Source of the DNA: Escherichia phage vB_EcoM_E9
DNA: 64,000 nucleotides
Strand: one strand, 5' to 3'
Sequence record: PP886229
In this document: piece by piece, positions 11,109-41,997 of the stretch
Layout of the letters: the number at the start of each line of letters is the position of its first letter
Numbering within the stretch: position 1 is the first letter of the stretch
Notes under the pieces: model-generated
The model's input: only the letters and a program-made list of their open reading frames with translations
The model's database searches: none
Told to the model about the DNA's origin: nothing
Translations under genes and position numbers: made by a program

Positions 11109-11185
11109 CTCTGTTTAGCTCAGCTTGGTAGAGCGTTCCGTTTGGGGCGGTAAGGCCGGAGGTTCAAGTCCTCCAACAGAGACCA
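11109..11185 (+). tRNA. tRNA-Pro (anticodon TGG)
   Basis: 7-bp acceptor CTCTGTT/AACAGAG, D-arm GCTC..GAGC, T-arm GGAGG-TTCAAGT-CCTCC, 3' CCA. Confidence 0.7.
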
Positions 11186-11192
11186 AATTAAT

Positions 11193-11270
11193 GTTCCAGT
11201 AGACAAAATGGTAAAGTCACCACTCTTTCAAAGTGGATATTTGAGGGTTCAAATCCCTTCTGGAACGCCA
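11193..11270 (+). tRNA. tRNA-Glu (anticodon TTC)
   Basis: Acceptor GTTCCAG/CTGGAAC, anticodon stem CCACT/AGTGG, T-loop TTCAAAT, CCA. Confidence 0.7.
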
Positions 11271-11277
11271 GTTTTGA

Positions 11278-11350
11278 CAGAAGACCAATTGCAGCAAACT
11301 TAATCTTATTCATCTGACACGAAATCGGACAAAGAAGAGATTTGGTCTGG
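11278..11350 (+). ncRNA. Stem-bounded tRNA-sized element, copy a (CAGAAG-AGACCAA ... TTGGTCT-GG)
   Basis: 7-bp terminal stem 11282-11288/11342-11348; conserved CAGAAG leader and CAGCAA box; no T-loop consensus. Confidence 0.4.
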
Positions 11351-11361
11351 TCATTAAGAAT

Positions 11362-11438
11362 TGCGGGTATAGAGAAAGGGCGTCTCACATGTCTCATTAG
11401 CATGGTATCGGCAGGTTCGACTCCTGCACCCGCCTCCA
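11362..11438 (+). tRNA. tRNA-Met-like (anticodon CAT), mismatched 1:72 pair
   Basis: Anticodon stem CATGT/GCATG, T-arm GCAGG-TTCGACT-CCTGC, CCA. Confidence 0.55.
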
Positions 11439-11444
11439 AATTTA

Positions 11445-11508
11445 CAGAAGACCGTTTACAGCAATATTTATTAAATTTTTAGCGGAAAAATTGAAAGATA
11501 CGGTCTGG
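11445..11508 (+). ncRNA. Stem-bounded element, copy b (CAGAAG-AGACCGT ... ACGGTCT-GG)
   Basis: 7-bp terminal stem with compensatory changes relative to copies a and c. Confidence 0.4.
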
Positions 11509-11521
11509 TAATACTAAACAT

Positions 11522-11598
11522 GGTTAGGAAGCACATAAGGTATGTGCGGTCGCCTGTTAAGCGAATGGCACAGGGTTCGAATCCCTGACTAACCGCCA
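11522..11598 (+). tRNA. tRNA-Asn (anticodon GTT)
   Basis: D-arm GCAC..GTGC, T-arm CAGGG-TTCGAAT-CCCTG, CCA. Confidence 0.65.
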
Positions 11599-11607
11599 AA
11601 TTTAAAT

Positions 11608-11695
11608 GTGTCGTTATCCCGTAGATGGTAGCGGTGGGGACTGTAAATCCCTTGTCATTGAGACTCGGTAGGTTCGACTCCTACACGGCACACCA
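11608..11695 (+). tRNA. tRNA-Tyr (anticodon GTA), long variable arm
   Basis: Acceptor GTGTCGT/ACGGCAC, anticodon stem GGGGA/TCCCT, T-arm GTAGG-TTCGACT-CCTAC, 88 nt. Confidence 0.7.
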
Positions 11696-11701
11696 AATAA
11701 A

Positions 11702-11779
11702 GGTTATGTAGTTTAATCTGGTTAAAATACTCCCCTGTCACGGGAGATGATGTGAGTTCAAGTCTCATCGTAACCGCCA
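11702..11779 (+). tRNA. tRNA-Asp (anticodon GTC)
   Basis: Acceptor GGTTATG/CGTAACC, anticodon stem CTCCC/GGGAG, CCA. Confidence 0.7.
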
Positions 11780-11866
11780 AATTATAATAAGTATTTCAAG
11801 ATGATGTTTTGAGAGGGCTATTTAGCCCCTCCCTTAAAGAGTTCTTACGAGTATTCTTTAAAGGAG

Positions 11867-11940
11867 CAGAAGACCAAATTCAGCAAGTTACTTAAAATTT
11901 CAAGCCAATTTAATTTTGAAAAATTTAAAACTTGGTCTGG
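11867..11940 (+). ncRNA. Stem-bounded element, copy c (CAGAAG-AGACCAA ... TTGGTCT-GG)
   Basis: 7-bp terminal stem 11871-11877/11932-11938. Confidence 0.4.
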
Positions 11941-11953
11941 CTCAAAAATTTTA

Positions 11954-12085
11954 CAGAAGACCGTTTACAGCAAAACTTAAACAATCTATTTCTCCGGTAA
12001 AGAAAAGGCGAAGGTTCGATTCCTTCACTCGGCAGATGTCGAGTTGGTGTAATGGTAGCACTTAAGATGATAAACAACGGTCTGG
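11954..12085 (+). ncRNA. Stem-bounded element, copy d, enclosing tRNA halves in permuted order
   Basis: 8-bp terminal stem AGACCGTT/AACGGTCT (11958-11965/12076-12083); contains a T-arm and a D-arm in reversed order. Confidence 0.4.
11989..12061 (+). tRNA. Candidate circularly permuted tRNA (anticodon GGT, Thr-like): 3' half 11989-12034 precedes 5' half 12038-12061
   Basis: 3' half has anticodon arm TTTCT-CCGGTAA-AGAAA, T-arm GAAGG-TTCGATT-CCTTC, acceptor ACTCGGC; 5' half has acceptor GTCGAGT (7 bp with one G-U) and D-arm GTGT-AATGGTA-GCAC. Confidence 0.35.
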
Positions 12086-12086
12086 T

Positions 12087-12230
12087 AATTATCTTTGTAG
12101 ATAAGTTATTAAGCTTACCTGTGAGTATGCGACCACAAAGGGTGAAAGGGCAAATTCTAGATTTAAACCCAACAAGGCACATCGCTACAGACCTTAAGCA
12201 AGTCTGGGTAGCTTATCTACAAAGATAATT
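12087..12230. repeat. 19-bp perfect inverted repeat AATTATCTTTGTAGATAAG (12087-12105 / 12212-12230) flanking ~106 bp
   Basis: Arms are exact reverse complements. Confidence 0.6.
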
Positions 12231-12234
12231 TAAT

Positions 12235-12310
12235 GGAAGTGTAGCAGAATGGTGATGCGGCAGACTTTTAATCTGACAGGCGATGGGTTCGAATCCCTCC
12301 ACTTCTACCA
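12235..12310 (+). tRNA. tRNA-Lys (anticodon TTT)
   Basis: Acceptor GGAAGTG/CACTTCT, loop CTTTTAA, T-loop TTCGAAT, CCA. Confidence 0.6.
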
Positions 12311-12314
12311 ATAT

Positions 12315-12391
12315 GGTTCAGTCGCAGATAAGGTAATGCAGGGGTCTCATAAGCCCTATGAATGTGGGTTCGATTCCCATCTGAACCTCCA
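12315..12391 (+). tRNA. tRNA-Met or tRNA-Ile2 (anticodon CAT)
   Basis: Perfect acceptor GGTTCAG/CTGAACC, loop CTCATAA, CCA. Confidence 0.7.
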
Positions 12392-12392
12392 A

Positions 12393-12468
12393 GCTGGTAT
12401 AGTTAAGAAGGTTATAACACTCCCCTGATAAGGGAACATCGGTGGTTCGATTCCACCTACCAGTACCA
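12393..12468 (+). tRNA. tRNA-Ile (anticodon GAT)
   Basis: T-arm GGTGG-TTCGATT-CCACC, loop CTGATAA, CCA. Confidence 0.65.
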
Positions 12469-12483
12469 ATTTCAATAAAGTTG

Positions 12484-12512
12484 TTGACATTGAGATGTGA
12501 CTACTTTATAGT
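12484..12512 (+). promoter_or_regulatory. Sigma70-like promoter TTGACA-N17-TATAGT inside the tRNA array
   Basis: Exact -35 at 12484-12489 and -10 TATAGT at 12507-12512 with 17-nt spacer. Confidence 0.55.
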
Positions 12513-12805
12513 AACTGAAAATAATTCAGCATATGTATAATTCAAACACCAATACATGAGCGTTAGACGTAACACAATGTGGGGAAATTTGTTGTACATA
12601 TTCTGAATAGTTTTCGTTGCGTAGCGTCTATTTTGCAAATTTAAAATAAATGCAAACGACAATGTTTTTCTGGCAGTAGCTTGATAGGCTAAACACCAGT
12701 GAGGTCTTCCAATCCCTCATCAAAGAATTTGGCGTACTAGCCCACGGTATGATTAATAAGGTGGGCATCTTTAAGGGCTTTCTAAGAGAGTCTTTAAAGA
12801 TTAAT

Positions 12806-12882
12806 GCACCCTTAGTTCAATTGGATAGAGCAACGGTCTTCTAAATCGTTAGTTACAGGTTCGAATCCTGTAGGGTGTGCCA
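12806..12882 (+). tRNA. tRNA-Arg (anticodon TCT)
   Basis: D-arm AGTTCAATTGGATAGAGC, loop CTTCTAA, T-loop TTCGAAT, CCA. Confidence 0.7.
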
Positions 12883-13024
12883 AATAGTTAGCAGATTGCT
12901 TAGACGACCTTATCGGGTCTCCGTGTAAGGAGGTGGTCTGTATCTCATGTTTTCCAGAACATGTAAATAATCTGAGAAGGGGCTTTACAGTGTTGCGAAA
13001 ATACGGTAAGCTTCGAATTACAGT

Positions 13025-13107
13025 ATGGGACGATGTTAAGACTCTAAGGCATGAGCAACGGCCTCCAAAACCGTTTCAAAGGGGTTCAACTCCTCCGTCC
13101 CATGCCA
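13025..13107 (+). tRNA. Atypical tRNA-like sequence, anticodon unassigned
   Basis: Acceptor ATGGGAC/GTCCCAT plus T-loop-like GGGGTTCAACTCC and CCA, but no clean D-arm or 7-nt anticodon loop. Confidence 0.3.
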
Positions 13108-13120
13108 AAGTCTTATTAGG

Positions 13121-13208
13121 GGTAGGTAGCGGCTAATGGCAGCCAAACAGTCTTGAAAACTGTTGCCACTGTAGAGATACGGTGAGGGTTCGACTCCTTT
13201 ACTTACCG
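13121..13208 (+). tRNA. tRNA-Ser (anticodon TGA), long variable arm
   Basis: Anticodon stem ACAGT/ACTGT, loop CTTGAAA, long variable arm, T-loop TTCGACT; no encoded CCA. Confidence 0.6.
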
Positions 13209-13364
13209 CCTAATAAGATTTACACCGTCCATGCTTGCTCGCATTTTCGGTTTATCCCTCGTGTATTGTCGTACACTGATAAAGCACCTAGCAGGTGTCA
13301 CGGAGAAGAGATAATATCAAGCTCTCCAAAGGTTCTAGTCACCGGATTAAACAAGACTATGCAA

Positions 13365-13384
13365 AGACCTATTTAGGTCTTTTT
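13365..13384 (+). terminator. Rho-independent terminator AAGACCT-ATTT-AGGTCTT followed by TTTTT
   Basis: 7-bp stem plus T-run, inside the tRNA array. Confidence 0.6.
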
Positions 13385-13463
13385 AGAGGGCTTCTAAGGT
13401 TATTACAGCTTGTTGTGGAACCTTGTTGCTTAGGTTCTTAGAAGTTCTCTAAAAAGATTTAAT

Positions 13464-13541
13464 GGGAGATTGACGGTAATTGGTAAACCTACCATCCTTA
13501 GAAGTTGGTGTTTGAGGGTTCGAATCCCTTGTCTCCTACCA
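13464..13541 (+). tRNA. tRNA with apparent anticodon TAG (Leu-type) but short variable arm; identity uncertain
   Basis: Acceptor GGGAGAT/GTCTCCT, T-arm GAGGG-TTCGAAT-CCCTT, CCA; 78 nt. Confidence 0.5.
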
Positions 13542-13548
13542 AATTAAT

Positions 13549-13624
13549 GCAGGTGTAGCAAAATGGTTATGCGGCTGACTCTTAATCAGTAAGACGATGG
13601 GTTCAATTCCCTCCACCTGTACCA
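13549..13624 (+). tRNA. tRNA-Lys (anticodon CTT)
   Basis: Anticodon stem GCTGA/TCAGT, loop CTCTTAA, CCA. Confidence 0.65.
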
Positions 13625-13630
13625 AACAAT

Positions 13631-13706
13631 GGGGTCATAGTTTATATGGTTAAAATTCTAGTTTTGCAAACTTGGGAACTGAGTTCAATTCTCAGTGACT
13701 CCACCA
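13631..13706 (+). tRNA. tRNA-Ala (anticodon TGC)
   Basis: Acceptor GGGGTCA/TGACTCC with the G3:U70 wobble typical of tRNA-Ala; CCA. Confidence 0.75.
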
Positions 13707-13712
13707 ATTAGT

Positions 13713-13787
13713 GCATCCATAGTTTAAACGGGAAAATTACAGTCTTCCAAACTGAGGTTGAGGGTTCGATTCCCTCTGGATGCTCCA
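13713..13787 (+). tRNA. tRNA-Gly (anticodon TCC)
   Basis: Perfect acceptor GCATCCA/TGGATGC, loop CTTCCAA, CCA. Confidence 0.7.
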
Positions 13788-13794
13788 AATTAAT

Positions 13795-13870
13795 GCTCCT
13801 ATCGTATAATTGGCTATTACGGTTGCCTTGTAAGCAACTTATCAGGGTTCGAATCCTTGTGGGAGCACCA
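13795..13870 (+). tRNA. tRNA-Thr (anticodon TGT)
   Basis: Anticodon stem GTTGC/GCAAC, loop CTTGTAA, T-loop TTCGAAT, CCA. Confidence 0.7.
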
Positions 13871-13874
13871 ATTT

Positions 13875-13961
13875 AGAGGTCAAGTGAAAGACCGCTTTGA
13901 GTCAACTGAAGACCGTAACAAATTCCACGGAGTTGAGTTAGCGGCACAACTTCAGACCTCT
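13875..13961 (+). ncRNA. Stem-bounded ~87 nt non-tRNA element (AGAGGTC ... GACCTCT) containing GAAGACC motifs
   Basis: 7-bp terminal inverted repeat 13875-13881/13955-13961; no T-loop consensus. Confidence 0.3.
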
Positions 13962-13966
13962 TTAAT

Positions 13967-14041
13967 ACTCGCTTAGTTTATATGGTAAAACACCACCCTT
14001 ACAAGATGAAGAAAAAGGTTCAAGTCCTTTAGTGAGTACCA
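13967..14041 (+). tRNA. tRNA-Val (anticodon TAC), weak anticodon stem
   Basis: Acceptor ACTCGCT/AGTGAGT, D-arm GTTT..AAAC, T-arm AAAGG-TTCAAGT-CCTTT, CCA. Confidence 0.5.
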
Positions 14042-14042
14042 T

Positions 14043-14120
14043 GTTCCAGTATCCCAATTGGTAGAGGATGCAAGCTCAAACCTTGCACTAGTGACGGTTC
14101 GAATCCGTCTTGGAACACCA
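14043..14120 (+). tRNA. tRNA with anticodon CAA (Leu-type) but class I architecture; identity uncertain
   Basis: Perfect anticodon stem GCAAG/CTTGC, loop CTCAAAC, T-arm GACGG-TTCGAAT-CCGTC, CCA. Confidence 0.55.
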
Positions 14121-14125
14121 ATTTT

Positions 14126-14201
14126 GCAGGATTAGTTCAAATGGATAGAGCAACAGTCTACGAAGCTGTTAATAGGGGTTCGAATCCCTTATCCTGCACC
14201 A
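14126..14201 (+). tRNA. tRNA-Arg (anticodon ACG)
   Basis: Perfect acceptor GCAGGAT/ATCCTGC, loop CTACGAA, CCA. Confidence 0.7.
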
Positions 14202-14219
14202 ATTAAGTAAGAGGGATTT

Positions 14220-14462
14220 ATGCAAACATTAATAGTCGTTGAACATGAAAATTCCAATAGCATTGAGTTTGTAAGGGTTCCCACTATAGATACCCACATT
14301 TTCTTGAAAGTCGGCTGGGGATGCGACCCAATAAGAGTAGAAAAATTTATTGGTCATTGCTTTGGTGGAAGACAACTTAAAAGTGTCAATTTTGAGACAA
14401 TGCTACCAGAAAACTCAGAAACAAATAATAATGCTTACCTCCTTACGAGGATTAGACAATGA
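14220..14462 (+). CDS. hypothetical protein embedded in the tRNA array
   Basis: 80 aa ORF in a tRNA-free gap, stop overlaps the next ORF start. Confidence 0.4.
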   Translation: MQTLIVVEHENSNSIEFVRVPTIDTHIFLKVGWGCDPIRVEKFIGHCFGGRQLKSVNFETMLPENSETNNNAYLLTRIRQ

Positions 14463-15016
14463 GATACTTAAAATATGTTTCATGGATTTTCTTAGCTTTG
14501 TTAGAGCCATTTGCAGCAATCTTAGCAGTTATCTTAGCACCTTTTGTAGTTCCATTTTACAGTGAGAAGAAAGGACACTTACCTTTCGGATTTAGATGGA
14601 TGGAAACTTATGACAACCCGATTGATGGTGATGAAGGTCATGTCAAACGATGGGCTAAGATTAGAAAGATTGGTAAGCTTGGTGTCTATTTACAGAGAGT
14701 TGGATGGCTCTGGAGAAACAAAGCTTATAACTTCTCTTACCATGTGTTAGGAAGAGATGTAAAAGATGTTACTAAGTGGAAAGGTAATATCAACGTAAGC
14801 TCTGACCCTGAAGATAATCAGACAGGTTATCTCCTAATGTGGAACAGTAATGCTTGGGGATTATTCGCTTTTATCCCATCAATTAAAGTCTTTGGTAAAC
14901 AATTCTACTGGAGAATTTATGTTGGATGGAAACTTAAAAGTGTTGTCCCAGAAGAAAGAGCATTCTCAAGGGAAAGAGTTATGTTGGCATTCTTTATTCA
15001 TCCACTAAGAAAGTAA
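14459..15016 (+). CDS. putative membrane protein embedded in the tRNA array
   Basis: 185 aa; N-terminal hydrophobic helix (WIFLALLEPFAAILAVILAPFVVPF). Confidence 0.5.
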   Translation: MRYLKYVSWIFLALLEPFAAILAVILAPFVVPFYSEKKGHLPFGFRWMETYDNPIDGDEGHVKRWAKIRKIGKLGVYLQRVGWLWRNKAYNFSYHVLGRDVKDVTKWKGNINVSSDPEDNQTGYLLMWNSNAWGLFAFIPSIKVFGKQFYWRIYVGWKLKSVVPEERAFSRERVMLAFFIHPLRK

Positions 15017-15024
15017 AGATTTAA

Positions 15025-15100
15025 AGGGGATTAGTTTACAAGGTTAAAACCTCGGTCTTTGAAATCGAAGAAGTTGGTTCAATTCCAACATCCCCCGCCA
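15025..15100 (+). tRNA. tRNA-Gln (anticodon TTG)
   Basis: Anticodon stem TCGGT/ATCGA, loop CTTTGAA, T-arm GTTGG-TTCAATT-CCAAC, mismatched 1:72 pair. Confidence 0.6.
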
Positions 15101-15102
15101 AT

Positions 15103-15181
15103 GCTCCATTACTCCAATTGGCAGAGAGGCCAGACTTAAAATCTGTGTTATGTATCGGTTCGAATCCGATATGGAGTACCA
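15103..15181 (+). tRNA. tRNA with anticodon TAA (Leu-type) but no long variable arm; identity uncertain
   Basis: Acceptor GCTCCAT/ATGGAGT, loop CTTAAAA, T-arm ATCGG-TTCGAAT-CCGAT, CCA. Confidence 0.5.
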
Positions 15182-15186
15182 AATTT

Positions 15187-15262
15187 AGCGGTATAGCATA
15201 ACTGGCAATGCAGCAGTCTCTGAAGCTGTCTTATTAAGGTTCAAATCCTTATGCCGCTGCCA
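15187..15262 (+). tRNA. tRNA-Gln (anticodon CTG)
   Basis: Anticodon stem GCAGT/GCTGT, loop CTCTGAA, T-arm TAAGG-TTCAAAT-CCTTA, CCA. Confidence 0.6.
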
Positions 15263-15293
15263 CTTCTAAGGGTTCTTACGAGAGTCCTTAAAT

Positions 15294-15369
15294 GTGGCCT
15301 TATCATAAATGGTAATGACCCATGCTGTGAACATGGTCTATACGGGTTCAAATCCCGTAGGTCACCCCA
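15294..15369 (+). tRNA. tRNA-His (anticodon GTG)
   Basis: Perfect anticodon stem CCATG/CATGG, loop CTGTGAA, CCA. Confidence 0.65.
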
Positions 15370-15375
15370 ATTTAT

Positions 15376-15451
15376 AGTCCAAGTAGCTTATATGGTTAAA
15401 GCGCGTGTCTGAAAAACATGAGAAGAGGGTTCAAATCCCACTGGACTACCA
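15376..15451 (+). tRNA. tRNA-Phe (anticodon GAA)
   Basis: Loop CTGAAAA, T-loop TTCAAAT, acceptor 3' strand CTGGACT, CCA; overlaps the GTG start proposed by the ORF track. Confidence 0.55.
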
Positions 15452-15467
15452 ATTTCAAAGGTGCTTA

Positions 15468-16202
15468 ATGAAAGAGATGACAGAACAAGGTAAGGAGATT
15501 TTTAATCTCTTAAAAACCGGTAGAGGGTTTTCTAACCCCCTTATTACTGGTGCAGCAGTTCTCGGTGGAACCGTAGCTGCCTCTACATCACTTGTAAGCT
15601 CTATTAGCTCTGTAACAGACCCTACAATAAAGGATAAGCTTGTTGCTGCTGGGCTTACAACAGTTCTGCTTAATAGCTTTACAACGAGTCTGACAAGCAC
15701 TACATCAACTACTAAGACACTGACAGATTACGGTCAAAAGTCCATTGATGAGTTTTCATCACGTATGCAGGTAGCAAAAGGATATTCCAATGTTATGGGT
15801 GCAGCAGGAGAGCAAGTCGGTTGTACGCCATTTAGTGGTATTATGGGTGTTGCTACAGAATATGGTCAAAAAGCTATTGACACGATTAACAACACGTTAG
15901 ACAGTGTTAATGATGTATTAAGTGACTTACAAGATGCTATTGATAAAGGTCTTGATACTGTTTCTGATTTAGCTAACCAAGCTGTTAGCAAGATTAATGA
16001 AGGTATCTCGAAGATTACAGCTTATGCAGATGAAGTTGTGCAGATGATTGAAGAAGAAGCTGCCCTTATTGCAGAGTACCTTAAAACGAATATCAATGGG
16101 TTCTTAGCAGGTATCTTACCAGACTGGTTTGACGATGCTTGTAAAACTGGTGTGATTGACACTATTGCAACACAAGAAATGAAGAACGCATTACAGAAAT
16201 AA
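15468..16202 (+). CDS. hypothetical Ser/Thr-rich protein with N-terminal hydrophobic segment
   Basis: ORF track 15405..16202 starts at a GTG inside tRNA-Phe; in-frame ATG at 15468 (MKEMTEQ) clears the tRNA. Confidence 0.5.
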   Translation: MKEMTEQGKEIFNLLKTGRGFSNPLITGAAVLGGTVAASTSLVSSISSVTDPTIKDKLVAAGLTTVLLNSFTTSLTSTTSTTKTLTDYGQKSIDEFSSRMQVAKGYSNVMGAAGEQVGCTPFSGIMGVATEYGQKAIDTINNTLDSVNDVLSDLQDAIDKGLDTVSDLANQAVSKINEGISKITAYADEVVQMIEEEAALIAEYLKTNINGFLAGILPDWFDDACKTGVIDTIATQEMKNALQK

Positions 16203-16203
16203 T

Positions 16204-16296
16204 GGAAGATTAACCCTAAAAGGTAAGGGAGCAGTTTGCTAAACTGCCAGTAGCTGAGAAATCGGTGTACCAGTTCAAGTCTGGTATCTTCCTCCA
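16204..16296 (+). tRNA. tRNA-Ser (anticodon GCT), long variable arm
   Basis: Perfect anticodon stem GCAGT/ACTGC, loop TTGCTAA, T-arm ACCAG-TTCAAGT-CTGGT, CCA; 93 nt. Confidence 0.65.
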
Positions 16297-16300
16297 ATTT

Positions 16301-16376
16301 GAATCCGTGACAGAAATGGCTATGTGCCTGTCTGCAAAACAGGTTTATAAGGGTTCGAGTCCCTTCGGATTCTCCA
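16301..16376 (+). tRNA. tRNA-Cys (anticodon GCA)
   Basis: Perfect acceptor GAATCCG/CGGATTC, anticodon stem CCTGT/ACAGG, loop CTGCAAA, CCA. Confidence 0.7.
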
Positions 16377-28081: not shown

Positions 28082-33465
<5,384 letters not shown>

Positions 33466-34937: not shown

Positions 34938-35792
34938 ATGTTTGAAAAGATTGATAGTGTTTATTACAAAACACTTGATGAAAGGACTGTAACACAGTTT
35001 AAAGATAAATTTATCTATACAAGTATCTTGAAAGCAATCACTGATGAGTTACAAACTCTAGAGGATGTTTGCTGGCAGATGCACACAGAGAGAAATATCA
35101 GGACGTCAGTAGGCCAACAACTGGATAATATTGGCTCACTGATTAAAGTTCCTAGACCTTTAGGTGCAGATGATGAAACATATAGAGCTATGCTTTATAT
35201 CCAAATCTTCCTAAGACGCTCTGACACCACCCCAACATTCTTGCAAAAAGCAATTATGACACTATATGGTGCAACTTTCTCTCAGATTTTTGAGCATATT
35301 ACTCCTAAGACTGGTGGTATCGTTATCCGTATCAACACTAGGAAAAGCGTTCTAGATGCTGCATATACACTGTCAAAGATTTCTGCAACAACTACTGGCT
35401 CCGCTGTTATCTTAAGAGATGTTACTTTAAAAGGAACTGCTTGGACTCCTGTAGAGGTTGCTGATTCATCACTTGCTATTGTTGATGATAAAGAGAACTG
35501 GTTTGTAACTGACGCTAACAGAGGTCTTGTCACAAATAACACTGGTGGCTCTCTGGAGTCCAACCTAGTAGGGAGCCTTGCAGATGCTGGTGTTATTGAT
35601 GGTTACTTTAAGGTTGACAGAACAGCAAACTCACAGAGTGATGATTATATGACTGTAGATAGGTCTAATAACAGTGGATATTTCATCGTTGGTAAAGAAG
35701 CTATCGCAGGTGGTGCATACGGAATCATGGCTGAGGTTGCACAAATTGTCAAAGGCAGAAAAGATAAATCACAACAAGAAGGAAATTCTTAA
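34938..35792 (+). CDS. baseplate/tail-fibre attachment protein (putative)
   Basis: 284 aa ORF. Confidence 0.4.
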
Positions 35793-36094
35793 TGGCAGTT
35801 TTAAATTGGTCTACAAATGAAGTAGATACTGATGGTAACCAGTTAAAAGTTTTACCACCACCGGAAGTTCAAGAGACAGGTCTTTTAAAGGGTGAGCCTA
35901 TGGGTAGACAGTGGTTCAACTATATTATCAACTACCTGCTTAATAAAGTAAACGGCACTGTTGGTGAAGTTCGCTCATATGCAACTGAGCAACCAGATTT
36001 AGTGGCTAATGGCTGGAATCTGATTAAGTCTGAGACAGGGACTGCATCAACAAGTACAAGAAACCTTTACACATATGAATATGTAGGAGCTTAA
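35792..36094 (+). CDS. hypothetical tail protein
   Basis: 100 aa ORF. Confidence 0.4.
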
Positions 36095-36096
36095 TA

Positions 36097-37272
36097 ATGG
36101 CAGTAGGTGAAATTCAAATCAGTGCCTTGCCACAAGCGGCCTTACCAGTTGATTTAAGTGATATCTTCCATCTTAAGCAAGGTGTTGAGGATAAAAGATG
36201 TACGCTTGAACAGTTGTTAGCACCTCACGCATCTCTGAGGAATAACCCTCATGGTGTAACCAAATCACAAGTGGGTCTTGATAATGTTATTAACTCTCTT
36301 CAATTAGTTGCAGCTAATAACTTATCAGATATTGTGAATGTTGCTGAGGCAAGAGCAAATCTACAAATTATGTCGTCAGAGGAAGTGAATAACTTAATTC
36401 AGCAACATATTGACGATAAAAGTAACCCACACAATACAACGAAAGCACAAGTTGGATTAAGTAATGTTCAGAACTGGACAACATCTAATCTGTACAATGA
36501 AGATGCTGATAAGTATGCTACCGCGAAAGCAGTTAATAATTTATACAAAGCTATCCAAGCGTCATATCCAGTAGGGACTATTCATCTATCTGTTAACTCT
36601 GCTAACCCATCCACTTACTTGCTTTGTGGAGGTACTTGGGAGTTAGTTTCTAAAGGTAGAGCACTAGTTGGTTATGATACAGATTCTAGACCTGTTGGTT
36701 CAACGTTTGGTTCTCAGACTGTAGCATTAACAAATAATAATTTACCAGCACATACCCACTCTATCTATCTAACAGGTGGTGGTCATACACACTCTGCAAG
36801 TGTATCTATCTCTAGTTTTGATTATGGTTCAAAAAGTACATCAACTTTTGATTACGGTACAAAAACGACTAATAGTGCTGGTGCTCACACTCACACGTTT
36901 AGTGGCACAACAAGTAATGCTGGTAACCACAACCATAGAGTCCCTATGAGGGGTAATGATAGGGGTGGCACAAACGCTATTACTGCATCTGCTGATGCTG
37001 GTGTTGGTAATGCTATGTATACTGATTTAGCTGGTGCTCACACCCATAGCTTCTCAGGTACAACTGCATCATCTGGTGCTCATAGCCATACTGTCGCAAT
37101 TGGTGCTCACAGCCACACTGTTAATATTGGTTCGCACAGTCATACAGGAACTGTTACTGTTTCTAGCTCTGAGCATACACACTCAGGGACATCTGGTTCT
37201 GTTGGTGGTGGTCAAGCTTTCAGTGTTGAGCAGCCATCTTTTGTAGTGTATGTGTGGCAGAGAACAGCTTAA
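36097..37272 (+). CDS. tail fibre protein with C-terminal His-x-His repeat region
   Basis: 391 aa; C-terminal HTHSIYLTGGGHTHSAS ... GAHSHTVAIGAHSHTVNIGSHSHTG. Confidence 0.65.
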   Translation: MAVGEIQISALPQAALPVDLSDIFHLKQGVEDKRCTLEQLLAPHASLRNNPHGVTKSQVGLDNVINSLQLVAANNLSDIVNVAEARANLQIMSSEEVNNLIQQHIDDKSNPHNTTKAQVGLSNVQNWTTSNLYNEDADKYATAKAVNNLYKAIQASYPVGTIHLSVNSANPSTYLLCGGTWELVSKGRALVGYDTDSRPVGSTFGSQTVALTNNNLPAHTHSIYLTGGGHTHSASVSISSFDYGSKSTSTFDYGTKTTNSAGAHTHTFSGTTSNAGNHNHRVPMRGNDRGGTNAITASADAGVGNAMYTDLAGAHTHSFSGTTASSGAHSHTVAIGAHSHTVNIGSHSHTGTVTVSSSEHTHSGTSGSVGGGQAFSVEQPSFVVYVWQRTA

Positions 37273-37318
37273 TTTCTTTACAGGGGCTATAAAGCCCCTT
37301 TTAAGAGGAAAATTTATA

Positions 37319-39868
37319 ATGGCAGATTACAAATTGAGTCAATTAAACTCAATCGACACAATTCGTTCAGAAGACCTATTGCACATCAGAGTTAAGAAAA
37401 GACCTGAAATGTTGGGTGACGAAGACCGTAGAATGACCTATCAAGACTTCTTAGCTTCTTTCAAACTTGAAAGATTTGTTCAGATTGCTGGTAGTACTAT
37501 GACAGGTGACTTAGGTATTGTTAAGTTACTTTATGGTGGTAAGGCAGTATTTGACCCAACAGGCTCTTCTGAGGTTACTATTGGGGATGTTTTAAAGACT
37601 TTTAAAATTAACGCAAATGGTCTTAAACTAGCTATTGCAGATGCTTCAAGGTCAGCAACTGTTTATCATACTCTGAATAAACCAAGTCCTAATGAGCTTG
37701 GGATGAGAACTAATGAAGAGAATGATGAAAGATATGCAAGGCTTGCTATCACAAATAACTTCAGCATTAGGCAAGCAATCGTAACTGATGGTGAGCAGTT
37801 AACTCTTAAGAAGGCAACCAATGCAGGTGCTTCATATATTCAAGGTAGAGATGCTAATAACCAGCAAACTTGGTATGTTGGACAGGGAAATGCAAACAGC
37901 AATAATGTTTATTTGTACAATCATACTACTGGTGCAATGTTAACCCTTGATGCAACAGCAGCATTTAATAAGTCACTTAGAATTGCTGGTCAAGTTCAAC
38001 CTTCGGATTTCTCTAACTTAGATGCCAGATACTTTACTCAGACAGTTGCTAATCAGAGATTTGCACAGTTAGCTGGTAATAACACTTTTACAGGTGCTAA
38101 TACATTTAGGACTATGAGTATTATCTCAAATGCTGCTGCTATCACACTACAATGTGCATCAGCAAACGAATCCCTGTATCTACTTGCAAAAGATTATCAA
38201 GGTGGTAACTTATGGTATGTTGGTAAAGGTAGCTCAGGTGATGGTGTAACTATCTACAACTATACCACTAACACCTCTTTGGTCTTAGATGCTGCTGGAG
38301 TATCAGCAAATAAAAATGTCAGAATCACTGGACAAGTTCAACCTTCAGATTGGGCTAACATTGACTCTAGATATATTCCGGCAGCAACATTAAGTACAAT
38401 TGCAAGAACTAATGCAAGGAATACTTTTAATGGTGTACAGACAGTTGTTACGGATAATGAAGGTCTGATTGTTAAAAACTCTACTCAGAATAGACCATTA
38501 TATATTCGTGGTGTGGACACTACTAATGTATCAAGATGGTGGATTGGTGTTGGTGGTGCTGATACGAATGATGTTACCCTAAATAACAGTTATTCTGGAA
38601 CCCAATTGGTTCTCGGGAATACAACATCATACATTAACAAAACATTGACTATTGCTGGACAAGTTCAACCTTCAGATTTCTCTAACTTAGATGCTAGATA
38701 CTTTACGCAAAGTGCTAGTGATAGCAGATACCTAAGAATCAGAAGCACTAGCTTCAATGTGGGAAACACTGATAAGTGGGCTAAAATTGCCACTGTTGTT
38801 ATGCCACAATCAGCATCCACTGCTGTTATTGAGGTATTTGGTGGGTCAGGTTTTAATATTAATACACCAAACCAAGCAGGTAAATGTGAAATTGTTCTGC
38901 GAACTTCAAATAACAACCCAAAGGGCTTAAATGTTGTTGCTTGGAGAACATCAGATAACACCATTGTCAGGGATATTGGTTATGTGAATACTTCTGGAGA
39001 CACCTATGATATTTACTATCTTGCTGGTACGTATCAAAACGGCACAACGACAAGGGTTCAGTCTTCTAGTAATGCAAGTGTACAGTTGTTTGAAGTCCCA
39101 CAGACATTTGATGATGCTCCACAAGGTATTGTGAAGGGTACAATTGCAAAATACTACACAAGTTTGCAAAAACCAACCCCTTCAGATATTGGTGCATACA
39201 CTAAAGCAGAGACTGACCAGAAAATTGCAGATGCAATTAGTGACTCTACAGACCTGAATAAAATCTACCCAGTAGGTATTGTAACGTGGTTTAACAGCAA
39301 TGTTAACCCTAATACAGCACTTCCTGGGTTAACTTGGACGTACCTGAACAATGGTGTGGGTAGAACTATTAGAATTGCAGCAGCAAATGGTTCAGATGTT
39401 GCTACAACTGGTGGTTCAGACTCTGTAACGTTATCTGTTGGTAACTTACCTTCACACACGCATAGCTTCTCTGCTACCACTTCATCATTTGATTATGGTA
39501 CTAAGACTTCTAGCACAACTGGTAACCATAACCACAACAGGGGGACTATGGAGATTACTGGTACAGTAGGTTACTTCAGAAGTGATTCTAGCAGCTTCTA
39601 CACAGCAAGTGGTGCATTCACACTTGGTAGTTCAACTGCTTCTAAAGGTTTTACTGGTTCTAACTTCACTTATGGTATCCCTGCTAACTTCAATGCGTCA
39701 AGAACTTGGTCTGGTGTAACGAATACAACAGGTAACCACAGCCACACTGTTGGTATTGGTGCTCACAGCCACACAGTTAGCGGTAACACAGGTGGTACTG
39801 GTTCTGGTTCAGCATTTAGTGTTACTAACCAGTTCTACAAGTTAATGGCTTGGGTAAGAACTGCTTAA
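37319..39868 (+). CDS. long tail fibre protein with three internal repeats and C-terminal His-x-His repeat region
   Basis: ~850 aa; repeat (R/T)I(A/T)GQVQPSD(F/W)(S/A)N(L/I)D(A/S)RY at three positions; C-terminal GNHSHTVGIGAHSHTV; ATG 37319 after AAGAGG RBS. Confidence 0.7.
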   Translation: MADYKLSQLNSIDTIRSEDLLHIRVKKRPEMLGDEDRRMTYQDFLASFKLERFVQIAGSTMTGDLGIVKLLYGGKAVFDPTGSSEVTIGDVLKTFKINANGLKLAIADASRSATVYHTLNKPSPNELGMRTNEENDERYARLAITNNFSIRQAIVTDGEQLTLKKATNAGASYIQGRDANNQQTWYVGQGNANSNNVYLYNHTTGAMLTLDATAAFNKSLRIAGQVQPSDFSNLDARYFTQTVANQRFAQLAGNNTFTGANTFRTMSIISNAAAITLQCASANESLYLLAKDYQGGNLWYVGKGSSGDGVTIYNYTTNTSLVLDAAGVSANKNVRITGQVQPSDWANIDSRYIPAATLSTIARTNARNTFNGVQTVVTDNEGLIVKNSTQNRPLYIRGVDTTNVSRWWIGVGGADTNDVTLNNSYSGTQLVLGNTTSYINKTLTIAGQVQPSDFSNLDARYFTQSASDSRYLRIRSTSFNVGNTDKWAKIATVVMPQSASTAVIEVFGGSGFNINTPNQAGKCEIVLRTSNNNPKGLNVVAWRTSDNTIVRDIGYVNTSGDTYDIYYLAGTYQNGTTTRVQSSSNASVQLFEVPQTFDDAPQGIVKGTIAKYYTSLQKPTPSDIGAYTKAETDQKIADAISDSTDLNKIYPVGIVTWFNSNVNPNTALPGLTWTYLNNGVGRTIRIAAANGSDVATTGGSDSVTLSVGNLPSHTHSFSATTSSFDYGTKTSSTTGNHNHNRGTMEITGTVGYFRSDSSSFYTASGAFTLGSSTASKGFTGSNFTYGIPANFNASRTWSGVTNTTGNHSHTVGIGAHSHTVSGNTGGTGSGSAFSVTNQFYKLMAWVRTA

Positions 39869-39947: not shown

Positions 39948-40145
39948 ATGCCTACAATCCTAGCAATTCTTCTAAAAAATCTAGGTAGCTTCTTCTGGAA
40001 ACTCATTTTATCCCTTCTAAGTGAATACATGATTGAGAAAGTGTTCTTTAGGCTTGCAAGATACCTTGCGAGTAAAACAGACACACCTATTGATGATGAG
40101 TTCGTAGATAACTTAGAAAAAGCTTTTAAGGGGGAAAATAAATGA
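39948..40145 (+). CDS. small hydrophobic protein (holin-like candidate)
   Basis: 65 aa with N-terminal hydrophobic helix. Confidence 0.35.
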   Translation: MPTILAILLKNLGSFFWKLILSLLSEYMIEKVFFRLARYLASKTDTPIDDEFVDNLEKAFKGENK

Positions 40146-40513
40146 AGTGGCTAGAGGAAGCTTTTAAAAATAATATTGGTGCAATTGTAGTTGGTATTTT
40201 TAGTGTTATTGGGATGTATACCACCATGCAAGTTTCAAGTGGTAAACAAGAAGTGTCTGTCACAACAAAGTTACAGCAGCTAGATAACTATTCCAAAAGT
40301 AATTATTCAGCTATTCGTGATTTACAGTCTGACATGAGATTGATTCAGCTAGGGATGGAGAACCAGAAAGTTCAGTTAGAGAATGTTAAGGGTGAGAATG
40401 CAAAACTTACCAAAACTCTTGATAAGTTCTCTGATAGTGTGAACAATCTGGCTCAGTCAGTATCAGCCTTGCAAGCTATTACTGAAAAGAACACAAAGAA
40501 TACTGAAAAATAA
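40142..40513 (+). CDS. membrane-anchored coiled-coil protein (spanin-like candidate)
   Basis: 123 aa; N-terminal TM helix IGAIVVGIFSVIGMY then coiled-coil-like region. Confidence 0.4.
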   Translation: MKWLEEAFKNNIGAIVVGIFSVIGMYTTMQVSSGKQEVSVTTKLQQLDNYSKSNYSAIRDLQSDMRLIQLGMENQKVQLENVKGENAKLTKTLDKFSDSVNNLAQSVSALQAITEKNTKNTEK

Positions 40514-40520
40514 AATTTTA

Positions 40521-40547
40521 AGGCTCCTTTTTACGGGAGCCTTTTTT
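40521..40547. terminator. Bidirectional Rho-independent terminator between convergent gene blocks
   Basis: GGCTCCTTTTTACGGGAGCC hairpin flanked by A-run and T-run. Confidence 0.65.
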
Positions 40548-40550
40548 GTT

Positions 40551-41450
40551 TTATTTACCTACTGACAGAGGTGCTTCAATCTTTCCTGCATGTTGGTAGT
40601 TGTTAATGCCACCAACAAAGTCACTTGCAGTGAGATGTTTTAAGTCACTTAAAGTGTTAAGTGGGATACCAATCTCAAAAGTAGGTGCATGGAACTCTTC
40701 ATTGTTCAGTAGTTCATAAACCTGTTTCATGTGGTTCTGATAAATCTGGGTATCTCCAAAGACACCTATCAAGTACCGTGGAGTGTATCCAGTCATCTTA
40801 CAAAGAACTTCCAGAATAAAGCCATAAGATGCAATATTAAACGGAAGTCCTAAAAAGGTGTCTACAGAACGCTGATACCATTGTAAGTCAACTTCACCCT
40901 CGTTAGTGATATAAATCTGAAACAGAACATGACAAGGTGCTAAAGCCATTGAGTTTGCTGCAATATCTGCTGCATTCCAAGCATTAACAAGCATGTAACG
41001 GTCTGTGATATCACCCTTCATCTTTGTTACTAAGGTCTCTAACTGGTCTACAACACAACCATTATGACCTTCAAAGTTTCTCCACTGAACCCCGTAGATT
41101 CTTCCACCTGCATCTTCTAACCAATCTTGTTCAGAAGAGTAATTAGAGCTTAACCAGCGTTTAAAATCATCTGACCAGATTGTCCAACGTTCTCCATCAT
41201 TTTCACCCCAAGTGCGGTAACGGAGTTCACCCAGCTTATTCTCACCATTCAGGAACCATAAAGCTTCCCCAATAACTTGCCGTGTAAACACCTGTTTAGA
41301 TGTTAAGAGTGGGAAACCAGTTCGCATATCAAAACGAAACTTAGGTGGAGCAAATGCAGAGATAACATCTCCAGTTCGTGTAGTACGCAGTTCACCAACG
41401 GATAAAACATGGTTCAGGATATTTTTGTAACTTGAGTCTGCTTGTGACAT
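40551..41450 (-). CDS. thyA: thymidylate synthase (ThyA family; dUMP hydroxymethylase not excluded)
   Basis: ALAPCH active-site Cys and YQRSVDTFLGLPFNIASY motifs. Confidence 0.75.
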   Translation of the reverse strand: MSQADSSYKNILNHVLSVGELRTTRTGDVISAFAPPKFRFDMRTGFPLLTSKQVFTRQVIGEALWFLNGENKLGELRYRTWGENDGERWTIWSDDFKRWLSSNYSSEQDWLEDAGGRIYGVQWRNFEGHNGCVVDQLETLVTKMKGDITDRYMLVNAWNAADIAANSMALAPCHVLFQIYITNEGEVDLQWYQRSVDTFLGLPFNIASYGFILEVLCKMTGYTPRYLIGVFGDTQIYQNHMKQVYELLNNEEFHAPTFEIGIPLNTLSDLKHLTASDFVGGINNYQHAGKIEAPLSVGK

Positions 41451-41451
41451 A

Positions 41452-41997
41452 TCAAAAGTGTCCTTTTACTTGTGGTGTATAGATATCAAAAGTTGCTTTT
41501 CCATCTGCTGATGGTCTTGACTGAATCTTAGCAAAAATTTTACGGTCATGCAACTTGTCAAAGAAGTTCTCAAAAGGTAGATACACAGTTGCCTCTTCAG
41601 TCACTTCATGGAAAACTGTATGAAACACTACATCAGCATACGGTAAAGCACTGACAAGAATACCTGCACCACCAATTACGAAAACATCTTCTTCAATATT
41701 ACTGTCAAGATACTTTAAAAATGCTCCAAAAGAGTCTTGATGAGCTTTAGCAAACATAACATCATCTTTACTAAAATCTATACCATAATAAGGCACAGAG
41801 TTTGTTAAGATAAGGTTTTCACGTTCAGGTAAAGGATTACTTCCCAGAGTCTTGAAAGTCTCGTTACCCATTACTACTAAGTTATCTTTAGTGAGTCTCT
41901 TAAACTCTTGCATGTCCTCTTTATGTCGAGGCCACGGCATACCAGTTGGAGTACCAAACTCCCCATTTTCACCACTTGCAAAGATTAACTTAATCAT
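41452..41997 (-). CDS. dihydrofolate reductase
   Basis: GMPW, VVMGNETFKTL and VIGGAGI motifs; adjacent to thyA. Confidence 0.7.
   Translation of the reverse strand: MIKLIFASGENGEFGTPTGMPWPRHKEDMQEFKRLTKDNLVVMGNETFKTLGSNPLPERENLILTNSVPYYGIDFSKDDVMFAKAHQDSFGAFLKYLDSNIEEDVFVIGGAGILVSALPYADVVFHTVFHEVTEEATVYLPFENFFDKLHDRKIFAKIQSRPSADGKATFDIYTPQVKGHF

Follow-up and report, generated by a model that had tools for sequence, protein, structure and literature searches.

Identification of the two fibre genes

What kind of fibres is encoded by two adjacent genes of Escherichia phage vB_EcoM_E9, whose products carry dense arrays of His-x-His (HxH) motifs near the C-terminus, and which parts of these fibres are expected to contact the host? 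The genes are located at positions 36097-39868 of the 64,000-nucleotide stretch of E9 DNA that was analysed (sequence record PP886229), referred to as the window, and are called here the short tail fibre (STF) and long tail fibre (LTF) genes. The region most probably represents the two receptor-binding fibres of a myophage of the Felix O1/wV8 type (Felixounavirus), each with a tip of the T4 gp37 type; a probability of about 0.9 is given to this reading. It is carried by the observed gene identity, homology and register with gp37, repeat anatomy, and pattern of conservation and mosaicism. The two genes are as follows.

36097..37272, + strand: STF gene, 391 residues; homologue of wV8 gp82, Felix O1 gp76, Sf14 gp52 and Bas63 gp26 (open reading frame; phrog_2097, tail fibre, E = 3.7e-139)
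37319..39868, + strand: LTF gene, 849 residues; homologue of wV8 gp83, Felix O1 gp77, Sf14 gp53 and Bas63 gp27 (phrog_4277, 1321 bits, full length)

A preliminary description of this region had taken both to be tail-fibre genes, and this is borne out by the PHROG tail-fibre families and by the annotated orthologues. The peptides that it quoted and the open reading frames were found as claimed on the + strand; GAHSHTVAIGAHSHTVNIGSHSHTG corresponds to STF residues 327-351, and GNHSHTVGIGAHSHTV is present in LTF. Comparison of the 3.8-kb fibre region with phage DNA gave 215 matching records, almost all of Felix O1-like myophages. The top matches, KEP1, vB_EcoM_H12 and wV8, showed ~96% identity over 89-95% of the region, and Felixounavirus isolates overall showed 92-97% DNA identity over 89-95% of it, the matched genes being annotated as tail fibres. 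The annotation of wV8 has the same layout, that is, gene 82, a Rho-independent terminator and gene 83 ("tail fiber protein"). At the protein level, 390 of the 391 STF residues are identical to those of the wV8 protein, and 2,698 homologues of STF were found in the protein database; LTF is 86% identical to that of wV8 overall, its closest relatives in the database being 96% identical.

The order of genes is also that of Bas63: wedge 2 (489 residues, Baseplate_J), wedge 1 (284 residues), the platform protein, STF and LTF, with the baseplate spike gene upstream of the wedge, platform and fibre genes. Both by this gene order and by near-identity to the annotated fibres of the genus, the two genes represent the STF/LTF pair of a Felixounavirus. 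The platform protein was identified as below, and the spike matched the "puncture apparatus gp021" of the same PDB entry, 9NDY (E = 7.8e-143). Because these two proteins match 9NDY chains, the Bas63 structure can be used as a direct model for the E9 baseplate.

35792..36094, + strand: LTF platform protein, 100 residues, Bas63 gp25 homologue (phmmer match to PDB 9NDY_S, "LTF platform protein (gp025)", E = 9.9e-59, full length; phrog_4141)

Bas63 (JohannRWettstein) and Sf14, which belong to the same genus or subfamily, share with E9 the gene order, the two-fibre design and the gp37-like HxH tips. In Bas63 both fibres have tips composed of collar, needle and head, with seven HxH motifs in STF and six in LTF (PMC12609058), whereas the corresponding numbers in E9 are nine and four. 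The STF is ~430 Å and the LTF ~630 Å long, and both are placed along the sheath before infection (PMC12609058, PMC11821841). The gene products gp82/gp83 of wV8, gp76/gp77 of Felix O1 and gp74/gp75 of VpaE1 are direct orthologues of the E9 pair, and were noted as gp37-like between 2009 and 2015, the homology of the fibres to T4 gp37 being reported for Felix O1 in 2010 (PMC3185647) and for VpaE1 in 2015 (PMC4690856).

Fibre tips of the T4 gp37 type

The domains of STF were delimited as follows. The column identities, here and below, were obtained from 25 related loci of IMG/VR, from which 21 distinct homologues of each fibre were aligned. The baseplate-binding role of the N-terminus is taken from Bas63 (PMC12609058).

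36097..36528, + strand: STF N-terminal baseplate-binding and shaft region, residues 1-144 (88-98% column identity, 21 relatives)
36529..36750, + strand: STF collar, residues 145-218 (Pfam Gp10_C; T4 gp37 collar)
36751..36936, + strand: STF descending needle strand, residues 219-280 (four HxH motifs at 219, 230, 264 and 278; tandem FDYG(S/T)K duplication; T4 gp37 motifs 883, 915 and 929 aligned)
36937..37038, + strand: STF head (distal tip), residues 281-314, the most variable part (column identity 0.32-0.49 versus ~0.9 in the N-terminus)
37039..37182, + strand: STF ascending needle strand, residues 315-362 (five HxH motifs at 315, 329, 338, 347 and 360; T4 motifs 966, 980, 989 and 998 aligned)
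37183..37272, + strand: STF conserved C-terminal segment, residues 363-391 (...AFSVEQPSFVVYVWQRTA), and stop codon (0.80-0.93 column identity)

In the T4 long tail fibre, each HxH motif, supplied by all three chains, coordinates a single Fe ion on the axis of the needle. The gp37 tip of T4 carries seven such motifs at positions 883, 915, 929, 966, 980, 989 and 998 (spacing 32, 14, 37, 14, 9 and 9). In STF the seven T4 motifs are found in register at residues 230, 264, 278, 315, 329, 338 and 347 (spacing 34, 14, 37, 14, 9 and 9), the His-to-His span over the head being 37 residues as in T4. Two extra motifs are located at residue 219, 11 residues before the T4-like set, and at residue 360, 13 residues after it; the STF needle thus appears, as judged from the motif positions, to be longer by one motif per strand at the collar end. 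The ascending strand includes three tandem units of 9 residues, G(A/S)HSHT..., which correspond to a 27-nucleotide tandem repeat in the DNA.

The alignment extends over the whole tip. Residues 145-362 of STF matched residues 17-227 of the 242 residues of the T4 gp37 tip (2XGF) with E = 1.7e-26, through collar, needle and head, and LTF residues 707-828 matched residues 101-218 of the same chain with E = 3.8e-7; the proposed homology of the His-rich ends with the gp37 receptor-binding tip is supported for both fibres by these matches. The T4 tip (Bartual et al. 2010) has the same order of collar, needle, head, needle and C-terminus, shares FDYGTK with STF, and is 51% identical to the STF tip over 112 residues. 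The fibres had also been described as ending in HTHS/HSHT arrays. The arrays are far beyond chance: the nine motifs of STF were reached in none of 20,000 shuffled sequences (shuffle mean, 1.4), and the four motifs of LTF in none of 20,000 (shuffle mean, 0.13). They are not the very ends, however, since 29-31 more conserved residues follow them to the C-terminus, and the final R-x-A of STF is aligned to the C-terminus of T4 gp37, ...IVRLA.

The domain map of LTF is as follows.

37319..37708, + strand: LTF N-terminal baseplate-binding domain, residues 1-130 (0.88-0.95 column identity; 126/130 identical to wV8)
37709..38041, + strand: LTF repeat domain 1, residues 131-241, ending in the IAGQVQPSDFSNLDARYFTQ linker (Pfam gp37_trimer; predicted beta-rich)
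38042..38383, + strand: LTF repeat domain 2, residues 242-355, ending in ITGQVQPSDWANIDSRYIPA (Pfam gp37_trimer; DNA repeat; alignment)
38384..38710, + strand: LTF repeat domain 3, residues 356-464, ending in IAGQVQPSDFSNLDARYFTQ (Pfam gp37_trimer; DNA repeat; alignment)
38711..39154, + strand: LTF middle beta domain, residues 465-612, a swappable cassette (tblastn, 30-46% identity to the middle of T-even gp37; indel-rich)
39155..39454, + strand: LTF linker (QKPTPSDIGAYTKAETD...) and collar, residues 613-712 (0.89-0.97 column identity)
39455..39535, + strand: LTF descending needle strand, residues 713-739, HxH motifs at 713 and 737 (aligned to T4 gp37)
39536..39736, + strand: LTF enlarged head (distal tip), residues 740-806, hypervariable (column identity 0.20-0.27)
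39737..39868, + strand: LTF ascending needle strand (HxH motifs at 807 and 816), C-terminus ...AFSVTNQFYKLMAWVRTA and stop codon (0.97-0.99 column identity)

The four motifs of LTF are aligned to the T4 motifs 883, 915, 980 and 989. LTF lacks the pair next to the head and the last motif, and its head is larger, the head segment having 67 residues versus 34 in STF and ~34 in T4. The heads of both fibres are the presumed sites of receptor contact. The T4 fibre is built from four proteins, whereas the E9 tips are on much shorter fibres made of a single protein each (391 and 849 residues). The needle segment with FDYGTK and HxH motifs is also shared, with 47-57% identity over ~100 residues, by lambda Stf, P2 H and other prophage side tail fibres, which differ from the E9 fibres in their N-terminal shafts. 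The lambda Stf/P2 H-type fibres depend on separate chaperones of the Tfa/G type.

The collar bears on a different identification, by which STF would be a gp10-like structural protein of the baseplate and not a receptor-binding fibre. Gp10_C (PF21939, E = 3.8e-18) is indeed the only Pfam match of STF above the cut-off level, and matches to T4 gp10 were found in PDB with E = 2.5e-6 to 4e-5. The similarity to gp10 is, however, confined to STF residues 140-240 (~439-529 of the 602 residues of gp10), a collar-like domain, and no homology to gp10 was found beyond it, while the far stronger match to the gp37 tip continues through needle and head. The full-length PHROG matches are to tail-fibre families, and in the cryo-electron microscopy (cryo-EM) structures of Bas63 and Sf14 the homologue is a fibre of 430 Å (PMC12609058, PMC11821841). 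A gp10-like role of STF is considered to be extremely improbable. Similarity to the receptor-binding domain of T4 gp12 (1OCY), looked for by sequence and by fold, was not found.

For the identification as gp37-type receptor-binding fibres, the next question is the role of the motifs. Among 56 diverse homologues, six of the HxH histidines are at least 90% invariant, and the others are retained in the majority consensus. The T4 gp12 protein binds Zn through HxH. The E9 arrays might likewise bind a metal other than iron, or none in some of the layers, and serve mainly as joints for recombination; in the 1990s, Tetart and Krisch reportedly recognized such "His boxes" of the T-even phages as sites of recombination. 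The motifs lie within conserved DNA segments beside the variable head, as fits a role as joints, and a solved counterpart is lacking for the two extra motifs of STF and for the reduced set of LTF. Against this, the register of the seven motifs matches the Fe sites of T4 exactly, and most of the histidines are conserved in distant homologues. This alternative is regarded as unlikely, though the roles as metal sites and as joints are not mutually exclusive.

Triplicated domain in the LTF shaft

A module of ~20 residues had been noted in three copies in the larger fibre. Three copies are present, two of them exact (IAGQVQPSDFSNLDARYFTQ at residues 222-241 and 445-464) and one diverged (ITGQVQPSDWANIDSRYIPA at residues 336-355), but the 20-residue sequence is merely the best-conserved end of a longer unit of ~110 residues, which is itself repeated three times (residues 131-241, 242-355 and 356-464; DNA periods of 342 and 327 nucleotides). 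The boundaries were set from a DNA repeat finder and manual alignment, and in the manual three-way alignment the copies are 38-48% identical; BLASTP of each fibre protein against itself gave the trivial self-match only. The Pfam domain gp37_trimer (PF20744) was detected on LTF in three stretches with E = 3.9e-69 and 229 bits, compared with a gathering cut-off of 21.7.

Upon single-chain modelling by AlphaFold2 (AF2), the repeats were predicted as beta-rich with short helices in the linkers; the predicted local distance difference test (pLDDT) score was 64-85 for repeat 1, and 50-86, mostly above 70, for the middle domain. A Foldseek search with the LTF shaft recovered T7 gp17, WceF and T4 gp34. 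The repeats match the pyramid domain of T7 gp17 (4A0T) in sequence with E = 4e-4 and in fold with a Foldseek probability of 1.0, and the fold match to the rod domains of T4 gp34 (4UXG, 5NXH) is weaker than that to T7 gp17. The template modelling scores (TM-scores) to T7 gp17 and T4 gp34 are low because only one chain of a trimeric fibre was modelled, and the resemblance is at the level of domains only.

Conservation and mosaicism of the fibres

In STF the N-terminal 200 residues are conserved at ~90-98% and the C-terminus at 80-93%, compared with 32-49% for residues 281-320. The conserved parts of LTF are the N-terminal 140 residues (88-95%), the three inter-repeat linkers (77-87%), the collar at residues 621-720 (89-97%) and the last 50 residues (97-99%); the variable parts are the cores of the repeats (37-52%), the middle domain at residues 461-620 (23-45%, with large indels) and the head at residues 741-800 (20-27%). 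Variable heads and domain cores, together with conserved linkers, collar and termini, make the pattern that is expected where the head contacts the receptor. The STF head is identical to that of wV8 at all 34 residues and to those of other lineages at 7-12 of 34; for the LTF head the numbers are 55 of 67 to wV8 and 13-17 of 67 to other lineages, with 100% identity to wV8 in the needle strands that flank it. Nine HxH motifs are present in the STF of 20 out of 22 distinct relatives, seven being the minority, and the LTF of relatives mostly has six. Among the sampled loci, LTF with four motifs and a large head is restricted to the wV8/O157 group; one other locus (L010) also has four motifs, with a short head.

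Mosaic fibres with conserved joints have long been established for the T-even, lambda and P2 fibres. The E9 LTF is a new mosaic: its repeat-1 core resembles that of the HY02-like locus L006, its repeat 2 that of locus L002, and its repeat 3 and middle domain those of wV8. In the core of repeat 1 (residues 146-216) only 22 of 71 residues (31%) are identical to wV8 and 68 of 71 to L006. For repeat 2 the identities are 69/114 to wV8, 110/114 to L002 and 67/114 to L006; for repeat 3, 109/109 to wV8 and 35/109 to L006; and for the middle domain, 146/148 to wV8. The similarity in DNA is interrupted at 37756-37964, 38110-38318 and 38415-39169, and each interruption is bounded by conserved linkers. 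One relative (P0164) is 95% identical over residues 1-472 and 93% over residues 610-849, while its middle cassette is replaced by an unrelated and shorter segment of 77 residues, and many members of the genus match LTF only across its first ~472 residues. A module-by-module exchange between phages is clear from these patterns.

Exchange of tips between the two fibres of E9 itself, which had been suggested from their shared C-terminal modules, is a separate matter. If the two tips were copies of one module, recently exchanged or duplicated within the genome, the common architecture of collar, FDYGTK, HxH motifs and ...W-x-RTA end would be explained, as would a stretch of 54 nucleotides across GxHSHTVxIGAHSHTV that is 80% identical between the two fibres; in the Salmonella-type lineage (L007, L010, L014, L017 and L020), where the STF and LTF tips are 48-51% identical, inter-fibre exchange may have occurred. 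The E9 tips are, however, only 33-34% identical over ~190 residues with many gaps, and the DNA common to both fibres is limited to the strongly constrained His motif; neither a grouping of the E9 STF and LTF tips as sister sequences nor long near-identical DNA between them is observed. The STF tips of relatives are all nearer to one another, with at least 49% identity and at least 199 bits, than any of them is to an LTF tip, and the STF tip of E9 is nearer to T4 gp37 (51%) than to the LTF tip. The suggestion is not upheld for E9, a recent exchange within this genome being very improbable.

Two other variants were observed among the related loci. Two VpaE1-like Felixounaviruses of IMG/VR (L004 4001-6355 and L005 4001-6364, in genomes of 88,403 and 87,372 base pairs) have LTF tips that are 88-92% identical to T4 gp37 over 97 residues, suggesting a recent exchange of tips between T-even and Felix O1-like phages; for VpaE1 itself, an identity of only 54% to T4 gp37 over the whole C-terminus was reported (PMC4690856). 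In L003 (4001-6371) and L007 (4001-6344) the LTF gene is split by a frameshift into open reading frames of 541 and 259 residues and of 453 and 311 residues, respectively; this may be a sequencing error, or the gene may be a pseudogene or truly divided. An open reading frame of 159 residues, apparently located between the fibre genes in L012, L013 and L024, was rejected as a separate gene; it is an out-of-frame reading within STF, which in these loci has nine HxH motifs.

Proposed fibre architecture and receptors

What follows on the trimeric state of the needle, on the binding of metal and on the place of the fibres in the virion is proposed from homology and literature. Each fibre would be a homotrimer, plugged into the baseplate by the conserved N-terminal domain, STF into a wedge protein and LTF into the 100-residue platform protein. 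In the C-terminal tip the chain would pass from the collar down a thin needle to the small distal head and then return to the collar; for T4, the needle is described as a coiled beta barrel of six strands, as summarized from Bartual et al. 2010 (PMC12609058). By homology, STF may have up to nine metal sites, T4's seven in register plus one per strand at the collar end, and LTF may have four, placed around a head of about twice the size. Such sites would act as structural rivets of the needle, and specificity would reside in the hypervariable head. The shaft of LTF would be formed from three tandem beta domains of ~110 residues with conserved, partly helical linkers, followed by the T-even-like middle domain. 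The conserved linkers, the collar and the His motifs would serve as joints for recombination, so that single domain cores and heads are swapped between phages and the host range is diversified.

As for the ligands, Felixounaviruses use lipopolysaccharide (LPS) and not protein receptors (PMC3185647), and for the O157 typing phages TP11 and TP15 a dependence is reported on two structures, the group-4 capsule and, in the outer core of R3 LPS, the last glucose (GlcIII) (bioRxiv 10.64898/2026.07.23.740414). Since the STF tip of TP15 is 100% identical to that of E9 and the LTF of TP11 is 86% identical overall, the receptors of E9 are probably these same two ligands, the group-4 capsule of O157 and the glucose at the end of the R3 LPS core. 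A more specific version is possible but tentative: the two heads would form a pair directed to O157:H7, the capsule being bound by one and the R3 glucose by the other, with the number of HxH layers tuning the reach and with linkers and His motifs as programmed joints. The identical STF tip of TP15, the presence of two receptors and two fibres, and the module-wise breakpoints are compatible with this version.

Several points weigh against the reading as a pair of gp37-type receptor-binding fibres. The single-chain AF2 model of STF (mean pLDDT 68) is best in the collar, shows the His region as extended strands (~53-68) and falls below 50 in the head, so that the tip is weak, with values of 42-65 over most of the needle and head; that of LTF (mean 52) gives ~65-86 for the repeats and middle domain and below 42 for the tip. 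For the needle one has to rely on sequence homology, register and the published cryo-EM structure of a congener, because one chain cannot judge an interdigitated trimer. The LTF collar scored 24.8 bits against Pfam Gp10_C, under the curated cut-off of 27, and, as mentioned above, the two extra motifs of STF and the reduced LTF set are without solved counterpart. The receptor assignment rests on one preprint on related phages, and the LTF head differs from those of wV8-type phages at 12 of 67 residues, substitutions which could matter for the use of ligand.

All the elements described above have already been reported for Felix O1, wV8, VpaE1, Sf14 and Bas63, most fully in the 2025 structures of Bas63 and Sf14, and there is no new biology beyond that work. 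What is specific to E9 is modest: the new mosaic allele of LTF, the HxH counts of nine plus four and the exact domain coordinates. The host range of Felix O1-type phages, which serve for typing, diagnostics and biocontrol of Salmonella and E. coli O157, is determined by these fibres, and the practical value of the domain map (collar, needle strands, heads at 36937-37038 and 39536-39736, and shaft cassettes) is for engineering or comparing receptor specificity.

Intergenic hairpin and neighbouring genes

Between the two fibre genes a stable hairpin was identified.

37282..37299, + strand: G+C-rich hairpin, with UUUU and then the LTF ribosome-binding site, AAGAGGA, after it (fold energy)

Its minimum free energy is -16.1 kcal/mol (z = -2.9), and an equally good fold was obtained in none of 200 shuffled sequences. 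The counterpart in wV8 is annotated as a Rho-independent terminator; a simple terminator scan missed the E9 hairpin because only four T follow the stem. The hairpin can be extended (37274-37307, + strand) by an outer stem, in which 37274-37278 pairs with AAGAG (37303-37307) of the LTF ribosome-binding site, and in this form it might conceivably participate in attenuation of transcription or modulation of LTF translation. The true start of LTF is the ATG at 37319 (MADYKL...), located after the hairpin and AAGAGGA, in agreement with the wV8 annotation. The start at 37250, which gives the longest open reading frame, was rejected: it overlaps the STF gene, while the ATG at 37319 has the ribosome-binding site and the support from wV8. 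Several other open reading frames of 70-99 residues lie across the fibre genes, either in another frame or on the complementary strand (37034-37246, + strand; 38665-39480, - strand); these are mechanical open reading frames inside repetitive and codon-biased sequence, and nothing supports their status as genes.

Directly after LTF, two open reading frames of 65 and 123 residues (39948-40513, + strand) each have a hydrophobic N-terminal segment, the second having in addition a coiled-coil-like tail. The T4 fibre depends on gp38/gp57A as dedicated chaperones. A fibre chaperone of the gp38/Tfa type beside the fibre genes was considered and rejected; among the fibre-adjacent genes, both downstream frames are small membrane proteins that belong to PHROGs of unknown function. 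In Sf14, likewise, no homologues of fibre chaperones were found when checked against Mu gp50/gp51, and a nearby gene, gp55, was tentatively annotated as "holin or lysozyme" (PMC11821841). A terminator-like bidirectional hairpin (40520-40543, both strands) lies between the late (tail) genes on the + strand and the convergent genes on the - strand, which encode thymidylate synthase and dihydrofolate reductase (40551-41997).

The central spike (32424-33047, + strand, 207 residues) also bears an HxH motif close to its C-terminus, NEHTHHY (H188/H190), and differs from Bas63 gp21 (9NDY) at three of 207 residues; the HxH residues of Bas63 gp21 were proposed to bind iron (PMC12609058). With the spike, this tail module contains a third trimer that bears HxH. 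At a distance from this module, 26 tRNA genes are clustered at 11109-16376 (+ strand), covering most amino acids and including tRNA-His(GTG), compared with the 22 tRNA genes reported for Felix O1 (PMC3185647).

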